DNA from: Candidatus Sericytochromatia bacterium
GTDB taxonomy: Bacteria > Cyanobacteriota > Sericytochromatia > S15B-MN24 > JAQBPE01
NCBI GenBank assembly: GCA_040400605.1
Contig: JBBAPZ010000013.1
Location: 1-50,188, forward strand
DNA length: 50,188 nucleotides
Direction of reading: 5' to 3'
How positions within the stretch are numbered: the stretch's first letter is position 1; every line of letters begins with the position of its first letter. The notes below the pieces were generated by a model. The model made no database searches. It saw only the letters and a program-made list of their open reading frames with translations, and was not told the DNA's origin. Below, in pieces: positions 8,681 through 29,543 of this stretch. The position numbers and the translations under genes were made by a program.

Positions 8681-9265
8681 GTGGATAATCGTAATGTTGA
8701 ATCCAAGGGGCGCGGTCGTGGTCGTCAGGGCGATGGCCGGCCGACCGAGCGTCGTGCGGCTGAGGAAAAGGATACGGAGTGGCAGGAGAAGGTCGTACAG
8801 ATCCGCCGCGTGACCAAGGTGGTCAAGGGTGGCAAGAAGATGAGCTTCCGTGCCATTGTGGCGGTGGGTAATCAAAAAGGCCAAGTTGGGATCGGTGTGG
8901 GTAAGGCGGCAGAAGTCATCGCCGCGATCCAAAAGGCTGTAACGGATGCGCGGAAGAGCCTCGTGACGGTCCCGATGGTTGGGACCACGATTCCCCATAC
9001 GGTGGTCGGCAAATCCGATGCGTCAAGGGTGATGATCAAACCGGCATCCAAGGGTACTGGGGTAATTGCTGGTGGCGCGGTGCGGTCCGTGTTGGAGTTG
9101 GCGGGCATTCATGACATTCTGTCCAAGAATTTGGGTGCGTCGAGTCCGTTGAATAGCGCGCGGGCGACGATTGACGGTTTGTGTCAGTTGCGGAGTGCGG
9201 AAGATGTGGCCGCTTTGCGTGGTCGCACGGTGCAAGAGTTGGTGGGTACGGCTCATGTCGAATAG
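8681..9265 (+). CDS. rpsE: 30S ribosomal protein S5
   Basis: [17 protein letters not shown]. Confidence 0.98.
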
Positions 9266-22707: not shown

Positions 22708-24153
22708 TCAGGCACCTTGCAGACGCAGGTCGTAACGCAGGAAGGCAAGCCAGGCAGCGAGCATGGCCAACGCGCATAGAACCAGGAGTATGCCGATGTG
22801 TCTGAACGCTCGATTTAGGTCTGTTTTTGCGTACGCATTGCCGGGGTTAAACGGTGGCAATTCATTCCAGGTTGGGCGCGTGTCGATGCCAGTGATCAGC
22901 CTTTGCTCCGGCCAGCGTCGCAGTTCGCGCGCGTAGGCATCGACGGCGTCGATGAACGCGCGGTGTCGCGCACCGTCGGTGCCTGCCAGTTCTGCCGTCG
23001 CAAGCTGGTAGACAAGGGTCGGAGATAGCGCGGCCAGCGTTTGCAGTGAGTGTTCACGCGCCACGCGTATGGTTTTGTCGATTGCAGTGACGTGATCGAT
23101 TCTGGCAAAAAACTCGTCATAGTACGCCAGGCGAAGTCGCGCGGCATCGACACCTTTAGGTGTCGCTCCGAGATGCCCATTTTTGTAGGCTGTCACTTTC
23201 TTGCGATAGTTTACAAGCGATTGGGCGCGTAAGGCGGGTATTTTTTCTTCCAGTAGCGCTGAAGCGGTTACTGGATGCCGCGAGGCTGCTTCTGCAGCAA
23301 TTACCTTTGGAGCGGCCAGGGCCACCACGAGCCATAAACTGGCCAGTGCGACAACCGACGCGGCGCTTGAGCGGGCCATGGCGGAGACGGCGATGGATGC
23401 GGTGGTCCAGAACATCAGATAGGCCAAGCCAATCAACATAAACAGGACTGCACGCGTCAAACCATCCCACGATGCCGCGATGTTGCCTGTCGCGCCTAAA
23501 ACCGTAACCCCCAGCAGCAACGGTAACCACAATGTGCAGCAAACGACAGCGAAAACCCCCAGCAACTTGCCCAGCAAAAAAGTCCCGCGTCCGAGTGGGT
23601 TCGCAAAATGCAGTGCGAGGGTACCGCGTTCTTTTTCAGCCGAAATGCCATCGAAGCCAAGCGCAATGGTGAGCAATGCGCCCGCGACGCCGACCAATCC
23701 GGCGAGATCGAGGGTGCCGAAAAGGATACCAAGGGGCGTCAGTTCACCCTTGCGGCCCTCCAATTCACGTTGATGATAGTTTGCCGGCGCCGCCCACGTG
23801 CCAACGGCATCTGAAACGCCAGCGGCCAATGCGCGTCCTGGTGCTGGTGGAAGATGCCTGACAATTGGATGTTCAGCTGCGAGATCCACCGGACGCCAGG
23901 GGTCTGACCCATAGGCTGCGCGCCAGTCCGAAAATGCAACGATGACTGCTGCTTCCCCTGCATCATACGCTTGCCACTCCGCTTTGCATGCTGTCGCGCC
24001 GGACCAGGTGGCAAGGGCCACAAGCACTATCCAGAATATTGTGATCAGACGTCCCCGCCAGCCCGTGAGTGTCGTTTTCAGCACCCGGCTCGCGATGGTG
24101 ATTGCGAGGTTCAAGTGGGCTTGTGAGGAAGCGGAAGTGTAAAAATCGGTCAT
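22708..24153 (-). CDS. ABC-2 type transporter permease (DUF3526-like)
   Basis: GFDGISAEKERGTL motif, large extracytoplasmic loops, C-terminal FLRYDLR. Confidence 0.88.
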   Translation of the reverse strand: MTDFYTSASSQAHLNLAITIASRVLKTTLTGWRGRLITIFWIVLVALATWSGATACKAEWQAYDAGEAAVIVAFSDWRAAYGSDPWRPVDLAAEHPIVRHLPPAPGRALAAGVSDAVGTWAAPANYHQRELEGRKGELTPLGILFGTLDLAGLVGVAGALLTIALGFDGISAEKERGTLALHFANPLGRGTFLLGKLLGVFAVVCCTLWLPLLLGVTVLGATGNIAASWDGLTRAVLFMLIGLAYLMFWTTASIAVSAMARSSAASVVALASLWLVVALAAPKVIAAEAASRHPVTASALLEEKIPALRAQSLVNYRKKVTAYKNGHLGATPKGVDAARLRLAYYDEFFARIDHVTAIDKTIRVAREHSLQTLAALSPTLVYQLATAELAGTDGARHRAFIDAVDAYARELRRWPEQRLITGIDTRPTWNELPPFNPGNAYAKTDLNRAFRHIGILLVLCALAMLAAWLAFLRYDLRLQGA

Positions 24154-24160
24154 GCAGTGT

Positions 24161-25573
24161 TTATCTCAGATCATAGTGTTTGAAGCGAAAGAAACAGAGA
24201 AGCAGGATGATGAGCCACATACAGAGCATTGTCGCGACAGATGCACTTTGTTGTATCCAGATCCTTTGACTGGCCGTTTCCTTGAATTGAAACGGTGCGA
24301 CTGAGGGATAATCACTGAATTCGGCTATGCCGCGATCCTCAAGACGATTCAACCGTTCGAGAAACGCGCTGCGCCAGGCTGACGCTTGATTCAAAAATTC
24401 ATGGTGGCGTTGACCATCCGTGCCTGCGAATCCTGCGGCGATGCGAAAATAAAGACTTGTGGGCGAGATACAGCCAAACGCATCAAGTTTGGTAAGCTGA
24501 CGTTCCCGCCAATTGGCAATGGGTGCGTCTGCCTTGGCCTGCGCTCGTGCAGCCGCTGCGTCTATGATGTCCCGCACTGCAGCGGGTCCCTCAGTGGTGG
24601 TTATCGCGCCCGCCCCTTTCAGGCCACCGCTAGCCTTCAGTGTCTCGACCATCGCCTCTTGCTGGCGCCGCAGCCGGACTTCTTCGACGCGAATGGCCAT
24701 GCGAGCGGGAGAGGTTGCAGGTATAGGATCCCCAAGCTCCGCAATCGTCGCAACAGCACGAGGCGCAATGACCACCAGCGCGATCCATAAAACCACTGCT
24801 GCAAGGGTTGCTGAGGCGACGCGTGCGGAAAAAACGGAGCAGGCCGCACCAATCGTGATCCACACGGCCAGGTAGATTGCTGACAGGAACAAGAAACCAC
24901 CGAGTCGACCCATCACGTCGTTTGGCGCGCTACTGGCCATCCCCTCATACAACCCCGATGGTCCCAGCACAACACCGCCTGCAATCATCAAGGCCAGGCT
25001 GGCCGCCAGGGTAACTGCCACAAGGAAACCTGTCGTTCGACCGGCAATTTTTGCAAGCAACCAGCGATTTCTGCGCACAGGGTTTGCAAAGGTCAGACGA
25101 AGGGTACCCCGTTCCTTCTCCCCTGCGACGAGGTCTGAGCCGGCGAGCACAGCCAGCAACGACAGGATGACACCAATAACGAAAGCGGTATCAAGCGTGC
25201 CGATGGCCTGCGCGAATGGTGCATCGGCCGCGCTGGTGCCTTTGGCCGGAAGGAGTCGGTGGGCATCCGTTACAAGATGACCGGGAAGTATGCCGTCTGC
25301 ACCAGCAACCAGGCTCGCCAATGGCGCTGTCGGTTTGGCGAGCAAGACCGGAAAGTGGGCTGCGCCGTGCGGGTTTTGGGGTGGCTGAGCGAGCCAGGCT
25401 TGGCGGTTCTTTGCGGTTGACACCGCCACAGCACTGGCCGTTACTCCCACACGTTCGTTCCCCTGAGTGAACGCCACCACGAAAAACAGGCTTGCAACCG
25501 CTATCACGAGGCCCGCGCGCACGTCGCGAGTGGCTTGCAACAGCTCCAACCAAAAGATTGTGAAATATCTCAT
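24161..25573 (-). CDS. ABC-2 type transporter permease (DUF3526-like)
   Basis: QNPHGAAHF, GEKERGTLRL, paralogous to the neighbour, C-terminal FKHYDLR. Confidence 0.88.
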   Translation of the reverse strand: MRYFTIFWLELLQATRDVRAGLVIAVASLFFVVAFTQGNERVGVTASAVAVSTAKNRQAWLAQPPQNPHGAAHFPVLLAKPTAPLASLVAGADGILPGHLVTDAHRLLPAKGTSAADAPFAQAIGTLDTAFVIGVILSLLAVLAGSDLVAGEKERGTLRLTFANPVRRNRWLLAKIAGRTTGFLVAVTLAASLALMIAGGVVLGPSGLYEGMASSAPNDVMGRLGGFLFLSAIYLAVWITIGAACSVFSARVASATLAAVVLWIALVVIAPRAVATIAELGDPIPATSPARMAIRVEEVRLRRQQEAMVETLKASGGLKGAGAITTTEGPAAVRDIIDAAAARAQAKADAPIANWRERQLTKLDAFGCISPTSLYFRIAAGFAGTDGQRHHEFLNQASAWRSAFLERLNRLEDRGIAEFSDYPSVAPFQFKETASQRIWIQQSASVATMLCMWLIILLLCFFRFKHYDLR

Positions 25574-26286
25574 GCCGGTACCGATTTTCCAGCCATGGTT
25601 TCAACATATAGCTGTTCGAGATTCGCAACGCGGAGCGATTCGCCTTCGAGCTTCGCAACGAGACGTCCGCAACGCATGATACCAACCTTGTCCGCCAAAA
25701 CCCGCGCACGGAACAAATCGTGGGTGCTCATGAGGATTGCCTTGCCGTTGGCCTTCAGCGCAGCGATTGCTTGCTGCAACTCTGTAGCCGCGAGCGGATC
25801 GAGCCCAGAAAAGGGCTCATCGAGAAAAAGTGCTGATGCACCTTTGGCAAAGGCAATCGCAAGTCCGCATTTTTGCCTCATCCCCTTGGAGAGAAATCTC
25901 ACCTGTCGTTCGAATGCCTCCGTTGGAAGCCCCAAAGCCTCCAACGCGCCATATGCATCAGTCTTTGACAGCCGCCGACCGCTCAGCTCAACAAAATATT
26001 GCAGGTTTTCGCGCGCGGTTGCATGGCCGTATAGCATCACATTCTCCGCGACATATGCGACATGCCGCTTGGCCTCGACCGGGTTGGCCGCAACATCGAT
26101 TCCAACAACACGAGCCTCTCCGGCACTTGGCGGAACGAAGCCCAAGAACAGGTTGATGGTCGTACTTTTTCCGGCGCCGTTACCCCCGAACAACGCATAG
26201 ACCTCCCCTGGCTGGACGGTGAGGTCTAATCGATCCAGCGCGAGATGATCACCGTATCGCTTGGTTAAACCCACTGCCTCAATCAT
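25570..26286 (-). CDS. ABC transporter ATP-binding protein
   Basis: GGNGAGKST, LSKGMRQK, LFLDEP, STHD; GGAG 9 nt before ATG 26286. Confidence 0.95.
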   Translation of the reverse strand: MIEAVGLTKRYGDHLALDRLDLTVQPGEVYALFGGNGAGKSTTINLFLGFVPPSAGEARVVGIDVAANPVEAKRHVAYVAENVMLYGHATARENLQYFVELSGRRLSKTDAYGALEALGLPTEAFERQVRFLSKGMRQKCGLAIAFAKGASALFLDEPFSGLDPLAATELQQAIAALKANGKAILMSTHDLFRARVLADKVGIMRCGRLVAKLEGESLRVANLEQLYVETMAGKSVPA

Positions 26287-26326
26287 GGTGTCCATCTCCA
26301 GCTCAATCAAACCCGCAACCATACGC

Positions 26327-26383
26327 TTGACAGCATTAAGGTTATTAATGCAATAATGTAGCATTAGTGAATGGGTGTGGCAA
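26327..26383. promoter_or_regulatory. Divergent overlapping promoters covered by a Fur/Zur-like palindrome (26346-26366)
   Basis: Minus strand TTGCCA-17-TACATT with extended TG; plus strand TTGACA (26327-32), 19 nt, AATAAT; palindrome TAATGCAATAATGTAGCATTA. Confidence 0.7.
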
Positions 26384-26446
26384 GCATTGGGTCAGGTCGA
26401 GCGTTTCGTCTGAGCGTGCTTGTTGTTTAGGAGAGGGGATTTTTAA

Positions 26447-26584
26447 GTGAACAGATTGTTTGGCTGTGTTGCTCTGGCTGCGTTGGTGTTCGTTTCGTTC
26501 AGTGGCGCGGTTGAGGCACACGATGATTGTGGAGACCCGGATTGTAATCGTGGTGGCAAAGGCAAGATCGCAAGCATTAACTGA
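26447..26584 (+). CDS. Small secreted His/Asp/Cys peptide, 45 aa (absent from ORF track)
   Basis: MNRLFGCVALAALVFVSFSGAVEA/HDDCGDPDCNRGGKGKIASIN; SD AGGAGAGGGG 8 nt before GTG; Sec-type signal ending V-E-A; upstream promoter and downstream hairpin. Confidence 0.75.
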   Translation: MNRLFGCVALAALVFVSFSGAVEAHDDCGDPDCNRGGKGKIASIN

Positions 26585-26613
26585 TGCCTGCGGGCGTCTC
26601 CTAGGGAGCCTGT

Positions 26614-26653
26614 GGCTGCCTGTCATCAATGGCGATGACAGGCAGTTGTGTTT
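26614..26653 (+). terminator. Terminator-like hairpin after the small peptide gene
   Basis: 12-bp perfect stem CTGCCTGTCATC-AATGGC-GATGACAGGCAG then TTGTGTTT. Confidence 0.7.
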
Positions 26654-26657
26654 ATAA

Positions 26658-26774
26658 AGTGACGCAGCGGTTTTTGTTCAAGACTTGTCAAACAGACCCA
26701 AAACACCGGCACTGACTCGCTATTTTTGAACAGCAGCCAAAATTTGATCACCAGCCAACGCATTTCTGCATGGC
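26658..26774 (+). repeat. Dispersed degenerate intergenic repeat, copy 3
   Basis: AGTGACGCAGCGGTTTTTGTTCAA is identical over 24 nt to 37049-37072; internal TGTTCAA..TTGAACA inverted repeat. Confidence 0.8.
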
Positions 26775-26846
26775 TGGTGATTGTTTTGTGTATCAGCAAA
26801 TCTTGCCCTTCGGGGCTTTGAGCCCTGGATGGCAGGTCGTCGCAGC

Positions 26847-28034
26847 CTATAAGGATTCAAGGGCTGAATGGCTGTCCAGAATCCGCCACGCGGCGTGTTG
26901 CGCGCCAACGATGTTTCGCGCGATTGGTCCTATTTCGAGTTCAGCGAAGGGGCCCATGACTTGAATGCGTGGATGCCAGCGCAGTTCTGTATCCACGATG
27001 GGATAGCCACATGGTGCCAGCGGAAGCTCCTCGCGGGAAATGAACGCGTCGAGCCAGGTTGCGCCGGGGCGTCTGCCAGAAAAGCCGGTTGCCAACAGAA
27101 TCTGGTCAGCGCACAAGGTGGCGCCGTTTGCGCCTTGCAAGACGGCTTGGTCGCCAAATCGCGCGGCGGAGACAATGTCGGTGGTGACCCTTTGCAAGAT
27201 TCCTTGGCGTTCGGCAGTATCGATTGCTGTCAGTACATCTTCGGGTACGGAACCGGGCCGTCTTGCCTCACGAATGGCCTTGCGTCGCAAGATGGGATCG
27301 CGTAACTTTCGAAATGGAGCGAGCAGGCGTGGTGTTGACCATCCAGGATCGCTGTCTAACAGGTGTACCCGCGGTGCGTGGCGCAAAATCAAGGTTACCT
27401 TGCCGGGTCTTTGATTCGCCAGCGCGAGGGCGAGTTGATGGGCGCTTATGCCGCCGCCGATCACCACCAGGTGTTGCCAATCCCTGATTCCGTGACGTTG
27501 AAAATTCGGTTCAAAGACGTGTCGCACCGACACACCGCTTTCTCGCAGGGTTCTCGCCCACGCAGGCCAGACGCACGCCTCGCAACCGCCAGTGGCCAAA
27601 ACAACACGGCGCGCCGCGATGACCCCCGCTCTGGTCTCAACTTCGACGTGGTTGGTTTTTAGGCGCAAATCCTGAGCAGCATCCTGTATCCGCAGCTGTT
27701 GCAGGCCGTGCTTTTCGATCACACGACCCGCATGGGCTGAAAAAAGAGCCAAAGACGGTCTTCGGTATGGCTCCAGAAAGGCCTGCGATCGCAGGTCCGG
27801 CGTCTCGGACGCAAAATACTGCAAAGCCATCGGGTCCGTGTCCAAATGATAGGGAGCTGGCGATCGCAAATAACGCATGCCAACATTCAATGCACGCCGC
27901 GTCCAAGCTGCCAACGGTACCGGATGCGGATCAAGCACACGGACGCGGTCGCGACGTCTGCCCGCTTCACGTGTCAATTGCATTGAAAGATGAGTCCCGT
28001 GAATCCCACCGCCAATAATCAACCAATCCAACAT
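26847..28034 (-). CDS. FAD/NAD(P)-binding oxidoreductase, class B flavin monooxygenase (N-hydroxylase)-like
   Basis: Two Rossmann motifs IIGGGIHG and VIGGGISA; VLATGG and LLATGF motifs. Confidence 0.85.
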   Translation of the reverse strand: MLDWLIIGGGIHGTHLSMQLTREAGRRRDRVRVLDPHPVPLAAWTRRALNVGMRYLRSPAPYHLDTDPMALQYFASETPDLRSQAFLEPYRRPSLALFSAHAGRVIEKHGLQQLRIQDAAQDLRLKTNHVEVETRAGVIAARRVVLATGGCEACVWPAWARTLRESGVSVRHVFEPNFQRHGIRDWQHLVVIGGGISAHQLALALANQRPGKVTLILRHAPRVHLLDSDPGWSTPRLLAPFRKLRDPILRRKAIREARRPGSVPEDVLTAIDTAERQGILQRVTTDIVSAARFGDQAVLQGANGATLCADQILLATGFSGRRPGATWLDAFISREELPLAPCGYPIVDTELRWHPRIQVMGPFAELEIGPIARNIVGAQHAAWRILDSHSALESL

Positions 28035-28040
28035 AAGCGG

Positions 28041-29261
28041 CTATGCCACCACCGAAGAAGACGCCACTTGCCAATGCGGGATCGGGTCAGCAAACGCTGA
28101 CCACGCCGCTCGCCCAAGGGCCATTTCTTCATCGGTTAACAGACATGACTCGAGCATAGCGCGCAAACGGGCTTCATCCATGTTCGCGCCGATGATGGCA
28201 ATCTCCTGTCGGCGATCGCCATACGGCCCTTCAAAACTGGCCAGCATGGCCTGCCTGACACTCGCTTCCTCAGGCCACTCACTCTCCGGTACCGCTGACC
28301 AGAACAAGCCACCAGGCTGCAGTTGGCACGCACCCCCCGCCTGACTCCACAAACCGGCGTAATCCGGACGGGTGGCAAGCCAGAAGAAACCTTTCGAACG
28401 AATGACGCCCGTCCACTGCTCATTGAGTATCTCCCAAAATCTTGCCGGATGAAGTGGACGCCTGGCCCGCCAAACAAAAGAGCCAATACCGTAGGTATCA
28501 CTCTCCGGCACCTCTTCGCCGCGCAGCGCCGTCATCCACCCCGGCGCCGCCGCGGCTGCCTCGGGATCAAAACGCCTGGCATCAAGCAAGCGATCCAAAG
28601 GGACACGCCCCATACTCGCTGTCACAATCTCCGCACGCGGATTCAATGCCCGTAAAACAGCCTCCAGTTGTGAAAGATCCGCTGATGGGACCAAATCCGC
28701 CTTCGAAACAACCAGCAGGTCCGCGAATTCCACCTGGTCCACCAGCAAGTCAACAACCGTTCGCTCATCAGTATCATCAAGCGCCGCGCCACGCGCGTGC
28801 AAACTGTCAGCCGCCTCGTAATCAGCCAAAAATTGCGTGGCATCCACGACCGTCACCATCGTATCCAGCCTTGCGATATCAGATAGGGCGTTGCCATCAG
28901 CATCAGCGAATGAAAAAGTTTCAGCAACCGGCATCGGCTCCGATATACCAGTCGACTCGATCACCAGATAATCAAATCGACCCGACTCCGCCAGACGGCG
29001 CACCTCTTTCAGCAAATCCTCACGCAACGTACAGCAGATACAACCATTGGTCATTTCCACCAACCGCTCTTCAACACGCTCAAAGTGTATCTCCCGCGCG
29101 ATGAGCGCCGCATCGATGTTAACCTCGCTCATGTCATTGACAATCACCGCCACACGACGACCTTGCGTATTGGACAATATGTGCGTCAATAAGGTCGTCT
29201 TACCAGCACCTAAAAATCCCGACAAAACCGTTACCGGCAATTTATCTGTCGTATGTGTCAT
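28041..29261 (-). CDS. COG0523 (G3E) zinc metallochaperone GTPase, ZigA/YciC-like
   Basis: [14 protein letters not shown] (CxCC), ESTG, SKAD, Cob[11 protein letters not shown]. Confidence 0.95.
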
Positions 29262-29522
29262 ATTTGACTCCCCCTGCTGCCCTTAAAACAGCTGTCCGAA
29301 ACAATTCGGCCAGTTCAAACATTTGACCCGAATTCGCCACGCATTGGACTGAACTTCCTCCTGCATCGGTGAGCGACTCAAGCTTCCCGCATTTGCCCAA
29401 TCAACCATCAACACACGCTGGCTTGATGACCCATTACAGACTGGCTACCACGACGTATCCCCGACGCGTTCAGCACGCCCCCAACTTGACATGCCGACAA
29501 TGGCACAATCCCGCAGTGATAT

Positions 29523-29543
29523 TAATGCAATATTATTGCGTTT
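29523..29543. promoter_or_regulatory. Second Fur/Zur-like palindrome upstream of the COG0523 operon
   Basis: TAATGCAATATTATTGCGTTT; shares ATTAATGCAATA with 26344-26355; minus-strand TTTACA is adjacent. Confidence 0.7.

Follow-up and report, generated by a model that had tools for sequence, protein, structure and literature searches.

Does the gap between an ABC transporter operon and a zinc metallochaperone operon in this 50,188-nt stretch of Candidatus Sericytochromatia DNA (the window) encode a small exported peptide, and what might such a peptide do? An earlier note had described an ORF in this gap with a strong ribosome-binding site, a Sec signal ahead of a predicted 21-residue product, and a 12-bp terminator-like hairpin. 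All of these were found, together with a GTG start, and the features of the ORF are as follows.

26447–26584, plus strand: probable peptide gene, GTG start, 45 amino acids, stop codon within the coordinates; MNRLFGCVALAALVFVSFSGAVEAHDDCGDPDCNRGGKGKIASIN
26430–26439, plus strand: Shine-Dalgarno-like sequence GGAGAGGGGA of the GGAG type, 8–17 nt 5' of the GTG
26447–26518, plus strand: predicted Sec signal peptide, residues 1–24, ending in V-E-A, from a rule-based reading and a crude filter
26519–26581, plus strand: predicted 21-residue product HDDCGDPDCNRGGKGKIASIN
26528–26545, plus strand: codons of the C-G-D-P-D-C loop, in which C, D, P, D, and C are invariant in the relatives
26586–26655, plus strand: two hairpins 3' of the stop codon, the second terminator-like

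The N-terminus of the predicted precursor has a single arginine (R3), a hydrophobic run of 15 residues, and then V-E-A. By a rule-based reading, these correspond to the n-, h-, and c-regions of a Sec substrate, with the small residues at −3 and −1 that are typical of signal peptidase I sites. The predicted product starts with HDDCGDPDC, which holds one His, four Asp, and two Cys, exactly as counted before, and continues as a basic tail. The identical 45-amino acid protein is already on record in protein collections. Downstream of the stop codon, a stretch of 81 nt is predicted to fold stably (MFE −39.7 kcal/mol, z −4.4), with 0 of 200 shuffled sequences folding equally well. The second hairpin in this stretch looks like a terminator, as it consists of a perfect 12-bp inverted repeat (26616–26627 and 26634–26645) with a 6-nt loop and has TTGTGTTTAT behind it. 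The 5' region of the gene folds no better than shuffles (z −0.10), and no Rfam match was found between 26000 and 27000 at E ≤ 1.

The codon-usage score of the ORF is 0.227 per codon. In-frame chunks of genes have a mean of 0.286 (sd 0.141), and the mean for all 22,934 ORFs of 35–70 codons in the genome is −0.08, with 3.2% of them reaching 0.227. Lower scores, from −0.10 to 0.12, were obtained for four further ORFs of this gap. We also applied a crude filter, consisting of a hydrophobic start, small residues at −3 and −1, a hydrophilic remainder, at least two Cys, and a Shine-Dalgarno-like tetramer. The window ORF was among the 2 of 22,976 genome ORFs of 35–70 codons that passed, at thresholds chosen after this ORF was known. 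The other passing ORF, of 46 codons on contig C36 (start base 8696, plus strand), has a lipobox-like L-A-S-C and three further Cys.

Public sequencing runs were listed for positions 26250–26900 (24 runs), and 20 of them contain part of this stretch, 2 of the 20 being RNA libraries. When contigs were compared with positions 25600–27600, metatranscriptome run X11 proved to contain a 159-nt contig equivalent to 26442–26599, with 0 mismatches, and another contig at 26795–26974. RNA run X19 contains a 151-nt contig of a variant strain (26595–26738), with two substitutions and a 7-nt insertion behind 26689; as this contig spans the terminator-like hairpin, transcripts of one strand or the other cross it. 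These contigs show that the region occurs in RNA libraries and nothing further, as they carry no strand, ends, level, or growth condition and come from runs picked for containing the stretch; stretches lacking RNA cover and runs with a small share of matching words were not counted as evidence. DNA strains in runs X3 and X5 (divergence ~0.5%) have no changes in the ORF, an identity that is uninformative since merely ~0.6 changes were expected. We conclude that 26447–26584 on the plus strand is probably a real gene.

Counterparts of the gene occur in two other genomes, G002 and G006, which belong to one genus.

G002, locus L041, 337–468: 43-codon ORF with a GTG start; MNLLLTLLAAAAIALAGAPALACDDPDCPHPKPPKPPKAALEG
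G006, locus L045, 335–469: counterpart in the same genus as G002; MNLLLTLLAAAAIALAGAPALACDDPDCPSPPPPKPPAAPRTVR

The G002 counterpart, a hypothetical protein in the NCBI annotation of a Candidatus Sericytochromatia MAG, is located 1.5 kb upstream of an ABC ATPase on the same strand. The three genes have a common build: a GTG-AAC start, a GGAG-type site (GGAGG 6 nt before the GTG in both G002 and G006), a signal-like segment with a small-x-small end (V-E-A in the window, A-L-A in G002, and A-L-A in G006), and a basic, variable tail. The predicted product is 21 residues in length in the window and in G002. The C-x-D-P-D-C loop directly follows A-x-A in G002 and G006, and is three residues past the small-x-small site in the window. 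The signal peptides of G002 and G006 have no positive charge in the n-region. Conservation of His, Cys, and Asp in related MAGs had been proposed as a check on the peptide. It held for the loop, whose C, D, P, D, and C are kept in G002 and G006 and whose conserved residues are all potential ligands, but not for His1, as the products of the relatives begin with Cys. Nor was homology apparent by BLASTP, in which the window and G002 peptides gave no significant match (E 65), so that the case for common descent of the two types draws on architecture and context only. For comparison, a 6-residue stretch with at least five identities arose in 43 of 20,000 trials with shuffled 21-mers.

The tails align with one conserved Lys and no other conserved residue, and those of G002 and G006 are Pro-rich (KPPKPPK and PPPPKPP). 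Between G002 and G006, 2 of 87 nt differ in codons 1–29, both at third positions, as against 31 of 138 columns upstream and 21 of 45 in the tail. This pattern indicates that selection acts on the signal and loop and not on the tail. An exported small peptide gene, as had been proposed, is very likely. The known members, three in number, are confined to two genera of a family that has six; no such ORF is present in five of the eight genomes of this family, and the gene is thus dispensable.

Searches for further members returned mainly the known ones. The peptide matched only itself among 5.8 billion clusters (one of one candidates) and among 1.84 billion representatives, and an Atlas search had a best score of 0.75, with no relative. 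The best foreign match in a six-frame search of 40 relatives (E 0.035) was inside a 468-amino acid frame, and 7020 candidates among longer proteins yielded 0 matches at E ≤ 10. A profile search with alignment A2 recovered the window and G002 peptides as 2 of 20 candidates, and nothing else. The window peptide has no Pfam family at E ≤ 10 and no NCBIfam family, and the G002 and G006 peptides have sub-threshold Pfam matches only, to PepSY_2 and DUF4148. A metagenome scan located one near-identical locus, L082, with a single SNP at 26658. Two matches came from a genome scan: one in Acidobacteriota, rejected as its CDDPDC is inside a large protein, and the other G002 itself. The back-translated DNA pattern of the loop, TGYNNNGAYCCNGAYTGY, was not enriched in 47 genomes of the class (16 matches vs 13 control matches). 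Ten new loci and three others with this pattern were read, L053 being left out for a TGA stop within the matched word. Small ORFs with a hydrophobic start were seen among these in the window genome (G000), G002, and G006 only. The match in G001 (L043) contains TGA and has no motif-bearing ORF, and CPDPDCSRGKKG in G016 was rejected because it sits in a transposase-like ORF. This 102-amino acid ORF (L052, 1270–1578) has A-C-P-D-P-D-C-S-R-G-K-K-G, strikingly like the window loop and tail; we judge the likeness to be chance or a zinc-finger-like element of an unrelated protein.

The regulatory setting of the gene is more informative about its possible role, and involves the following features.

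26349–26363, no strand: putative Zur box TGCAATAATGTAGCA, identical to the 7-1-7 palindrome TGCAATA-N-TATTGCA at 12 of 14 positions
26383 to 26355, minus strand: sigma-70-like promoter of the divergent ABC operon, TTGCCA-17-TACATT with TG, overlapped by the box
26327–26332, plus strand: TTGACA hexamer, a possible −35, with no canonical −10 at 16–18 nt downstream
29526–29540, no strand: second box TGCAATATTATTGCG, one mismatch, upstream of the zigA-flavoprotein operon
25570–26286, minus strand: ABC ATPase, first gene of its operon, with a probable start (MIEAVGL) at 26286
24161–25573 and 22708–24153, minus strand: two ABC-2/DUF3526 permeases in the same operon (22708–26286)
26847–28034, minus strand: flavoprotein, NAD_binding_9/Pyr_redox
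28041–29261, minus strand: COG0523 GTPase ZigA, NCBIfam equivalog 'zinc metallochaperone GTPase ZigA' (622 bits vs a cutoff of 600)

Orthologues of the ATPase begin with MIEAIGL or MIQAIDL, which makes 26286 its most likely start and leaves a divergent control region of 160 bp between the ATPase and the peptide gene. The box is located 84 nt 5' of the peptide GTG and 63 nt 5' of the ATPase ATG, where it overlaps the minus-strand promoter, the position expected of an operator in a Zur regulon. The earlier note had a TTGACA promoter under the palindrome. The hexamer is present, but beside the palindrome and not under it, and a promoter scan of 26000–27000 returned no plus-strand site, its sole hit being the minus-strand promoter at 26383 to 26355.

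The 13-mer TATTAATGCAATA (26343–26355) occurs twice only in the 3.7-Mb genome, here and at 29520 before zigA, and the exact 15-mer box of the window is also found in G004, adjoining a ZnuB-like gene. The window genome has 1, 1, and 6 sites for TGCAATA-N-TATTGCA at 0, 1, and 2 mismatches (expected 0.01, 0.27, and 5.8). Six of these eight sites adjoin zinc genes, namely those for ZigA, a second COG0523 operon with a NicO-type protein, two ZIP proteins, ZnuA (PF01297), and an ABC-3 permease/ATPase pair. Across the class, boxes with at most one mismatch number 42, in 22 of 47 genomes, vs 5 control sites. As the palindrome flanks ZigA, COG0523, ZnuA, ZnuBC-like, and ZIP genes, we read it as the putative Zur box of this lineage, to which Zur would bind. 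Further putative boxes in the window genome are at C17:52133–52147, C17:52438–52452, C15:72321–72335, and C23:33386–33400; they adjoin a COG0523-WD40-NicO operon, an L33 paralogue (C17:52657–52800) and ZIP gene, a ZnuBC-like operon divergent from a second ZIP gene, and genes for a 441-amino acid secreted protein and ZnuA. No small signal-like ORF comparable to the window ORF was present within 300 nt of the boxes at 16 + 18 loci scanned, the 18 being part of the 42 class-wide sites.

In G002 and G006, too, the peptide gene has such a box ~60 nt upstream. It is the first gene of a cluster in which L33 and S18 paralogues, DUF1826, and a ZIP gene or the ABC operon follow, genes of a classic zinc-sparing kind. 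The order box-peptide-L33-ZIP of G006 has a matching slot in the window genome, in which there is no intact peptide ORF. The constant companions of the peptide gene are the operator and zinc-uptake genes only. A zinc link, which had been suggested previously, is therefore supported by regulatory context: the 15-bp palindrome is common to ZigA, ZnuA, ZnuBC-like, and ZIP genes, and in G002 and G006 this box again precedes a peptide of the same build.

Orthologues of the ABC operon occur in G003, G011, G002, and G023. In G011 a FUR-family gene, with a 53% orthologue in the window genome (C17:4148–4609), is divergent from the operon; after this gene come a box and then a cobW-like gene. In G003 a box precedes a gene for a 514-amino acid secreted protein and the ABC operon, and in G002 the ABC operon is in one cluster with the L33 and S18 paralogues. 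The ABC-2/DUF3526 operon seems to recur as part of the putative Zur regulon; the term DUF3526 was not found in the literature searched. The flavoprotein, which had been put forward as a partner of the peptide, goes instead with ZigA. The pair is found in G002, G006, and G007 (75% and 63–65% identity) with the peptide gene near or not, and in G002 and G006 it is on other contigs than the peptide gene. In G007, a ZIP gene (58% identical to a ZIP gene of the window genome) converges on the pair.

Our best explanation, put forward tentatively and at somewhat less than an even chance, is that 26447–26584 on the plus strand is a real gene of a zinc-starvation (Zur-type) regulon and encodes an exported, metal-binding periplasmic peptide. 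When zinc is scarce, the repressor would leave the palindrome at 26349–26363 in the control region shared with the divergent ABC-2/DUF3526 operon, and a monocistronic mRNA would be made that terminates at the hairpin at 26616–26645. The 45-residue precursor would be exported by Sec and cleaved after V-E-A, and the 21-residue product would remain in the periplasm. There, the acidic Cys-x-Asp-Pro-Asp-Cys loop and a free N-terminal His (Cys in the relatives) may bind Zn2+ or another divalent metal, and the peptide might hold this metal or pass it to co-induced uptake systems (ZnuA, ZIP). Anionic envelope surfaces may retain the peptide through its variable, Lys-rich tail. A trans-acting product is argued for by the window copy, which is a stand-alone unit with its own terminator. 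Against metal binding, the window peptide has only two Cys, which in the oxidising periplasm would usually form a disulfide and so leave few soft metal ligands. We also count against this explanation that His1 is not conserved, that most relatives lack the gene, and that no canonical plus-strand promoter is present. A secreted zincophore, as suggested in the earlier note, is less likely than a periplasmic peptide, as nothing was seen that would carry a 2-kDa peptide across the outer membrane. It is possible, though rather doubtful, that the unmodified, ribosomally made and Sec-exported 21-mer is a dedicated Zur-controlled periplasmic zinc ligand, a 'peptide zinc shuttle', that works with the ABC-2/DUF3526 transporter. 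Its ligands would be the N-terminal amine, the two thiolates, and Asp carboxylates of the C-x-D-P-D-C loop. Such a shuttle would, to our knowledge, be far smaller than any described zinc chaperone.

Several known metal-binding proteins invite comparison. Bacterial metallothioneins (SmtA/BmtA) are cytoplasmic, rich in Cys, and belong to Pfam Metallothio_Pro; they were ruled out for the window peptide, which carries a signal peptide, has only two Cys, and matches no Pfam family. The N-terminal nickel hook of NiSOD is H-C-x-x-P-C on a protein of about 117 amino acids. Like the hook, the peptides described here have a Pro and two Cys close to a free N-terminal His or Cys, but their register is H-D-D-C-G-D-P-D-C or C-D-D-P-D-C, and no 4-helix body follows. 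The analogy to NiSOD drawn previously fails on this account, with H-C-x-x-P-C absent, His1 not conserved, and the relatives beginning with Cys.

Closer parallels are seen among the helpers of zinc uptake. ZinT is a periplasmic zinc chaperone of Zur regulons, and PA4063 of Pseudomonas aeruginosa is reported to be another (PMC8561739). Both are small periplasmic helpers, made under zinc shortage only and with weak to moderate zinc binding, that occur beside ABC systems, but they are folded and have His-rich loops, and the window peptide has no sequence or Pfam relation to them. The ABC system beside the window peptide is of the ABC-2/DUF3526 type and not MacB/FtsX or ZnuBC. In Anabaena sp. PCC 7120, ZepA (All3515) is a Zur-repressed secreted protein that mediates zinc uptake, and the Zur sites of this organism are 15-bp palindromes overlapping −10 boxes (PMC10957091). 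ZepA resembles the window peptide in coming from a related phylum-level lineage and in having a signal peptide and a 15-bp palindrome over its promoter (PMC10957091). Its induction under zinc shortage and its extracytoplasmic action (PMC10957091) have putative counterparts in the window peptide. ZepA differs in being a ~25–35 kDa protein with its own fold and three conserved His proposed as the site (PMC10957091), whereas there are 21 residues with Cys and Asp here.

Four other explanations were weighed. If the signal were not cleaved, the product would be a single-pass membrane protein with a signal anchor, and its periplasmic 21-residue loop and tail would modulate a ZIP transporter or the ABC-2/DUF3526 pump. 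Small membrane proteins can modulate transporters, including those of metals. The hydrophobic run of 15–17 residues, the lack of a charged n-region in G002 and G006, and the position of the gene, which adjoins a ZIP gene in G006 and the ABC operon in both G002 and the window, are consistent with such an anchor. However, all three peptides have a small-x-small site directly before the loop, as in cleaved signals, and the partner would have to be a different neighbour in each genome, and we consider an anchor unlikely.

A non-metal role for the exported peptide, as a disulfide-looped signal or envelope binder, or alternatively a RiPP precursor, appears quite unlikely. Two Cys with four residues between them would fit a small disulfide loop, basic tails would suit binding to anionic surfaces, and the A-L-A-C of G002 and G006 forms a weak lipobox-like site. 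There is also precedent for RiPP precursors with Sec signals in bufferins (PMC11626156) and DAG-RiPPs (PMC13056109). Bufferins are described as ribosomal peptides with Sec signals, whose Cys are turned into thiooxazoles by an MNIO and a partner protein and which respond to copper excess (PMC11626156). Like the window peptide, bufferins are ribosomal, have a Sec signal and Cys residues, and are periplasmic and metal-linked (PMC11626156), the latter two being predicted here. However, no match to MNIO (PF05114) was found in the window genome (94.55% complete) or among the neighbours, in a search whose control was positive in Caulobacter, and the window peptide has no match to a bufferin precursor family, including the DUF2282 type. 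These results also speak against the RiPP precursor that the earlier note had offered. Furthermore, no modifying enzyme is a conserved neighbour of the peptide genes, the flavoprotein goes with ZigA, the window peptide has no lipobox, and the sole constant neighbour is the zinc-type operator.

The ORF could instead act in cis as a metal-sensing leader like CruR, with the Cys pair of the nascent peptide controlling downstream transcription or translation. CruR (DUF2946) of Bordetella pertussis is described as a copper-responsive uORF of 145 amino acids, with a CXXC motif, 45 intervening residues, and a C-terminal RAPP (PMC9426467). Like CruR (PMC9426467), the G002 and G006 ORFs are small, carry a Cys pair, and stand first in operons for metal uptake; their products are predicted to be exported, and their Pro-rich tails could slow ribosomes. 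The window copy does not head such an operon: it is monocistronic, with the terminator-like hairpin 3' of it and no same-strand gene downstream. In addition, there is no DUF2946 match at E ≤ 10, the Cys are spaced C-x4-C and not CXXC, no RAPP-like motif is present, and one Lys is the only conserved tail residue. The Cys loop is located 12–16 residues from the C-terminus, and so would still be in the ribosomal tunnel at termination, as against the 45 residues between motifs given for CruR (PMC9426467). A leader role is thus very unlikely. Finally, a non-functional chance ORF in a regulatory gap, coincidentally like those of G002 and G006, would suit the presence in this gap of at least six overlapping ORFs with 30 codons or more, the tiny family, the BLASTP E of 65, and the post hoc filter thresholds, but is very improbable in view of the codon score (top 3.2%), the filter result (2 of 22,976), the motif coincidence (43 of 20,000), the shared operator, GTG-AAC start, and product length, the purely synonymous differences between G002 and G006 in codons 1–29, and the RNA-library contig spanning the ORF.

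We rate the peptides as a new and very narrow small-protein family that takes up a known theme, the extracytoplasmic zinc helper under Zur control, with a much smaller product. Model bacteria have well-mapped zinc-starvation regulons, and the periplasmic or secreted zinc helpers known to us are folded proteins (ZinT, PA4063, and ZepA) or small molecules made by enzymes. If our best explanation is true, a gene-encoded 21-residue peptide as a zinc helper would represent a new solution of very low cost. For Sericytochromatia, the non-photosynthetic sister lineage of the cyanobacteria, the analysis defines a candidate Zur box and regulon, and it flags an uncharacterised ABC-2/DUF3526 transporter as a recurrent regulon member. 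The locus also provides a worked example of a small gene that cannot be linked to relatives by sequence searches but can be linked by conserved context and architecture.

Between the terminator-like hairpin and the flavoprotein gene, positions 26658–26768 are occupied by a short dispersed repeat; ~19 other partial matches to it occur in the genome, of which the best (111 nt, 87% identity) is at C13:60718. In four of the public runs, many contigs match 26708–26753 and then diverge into unlike sequence, with depth rising from 12 to 80. The repeat includes an inverted repeat at 26747–26757 and 26771–26781.
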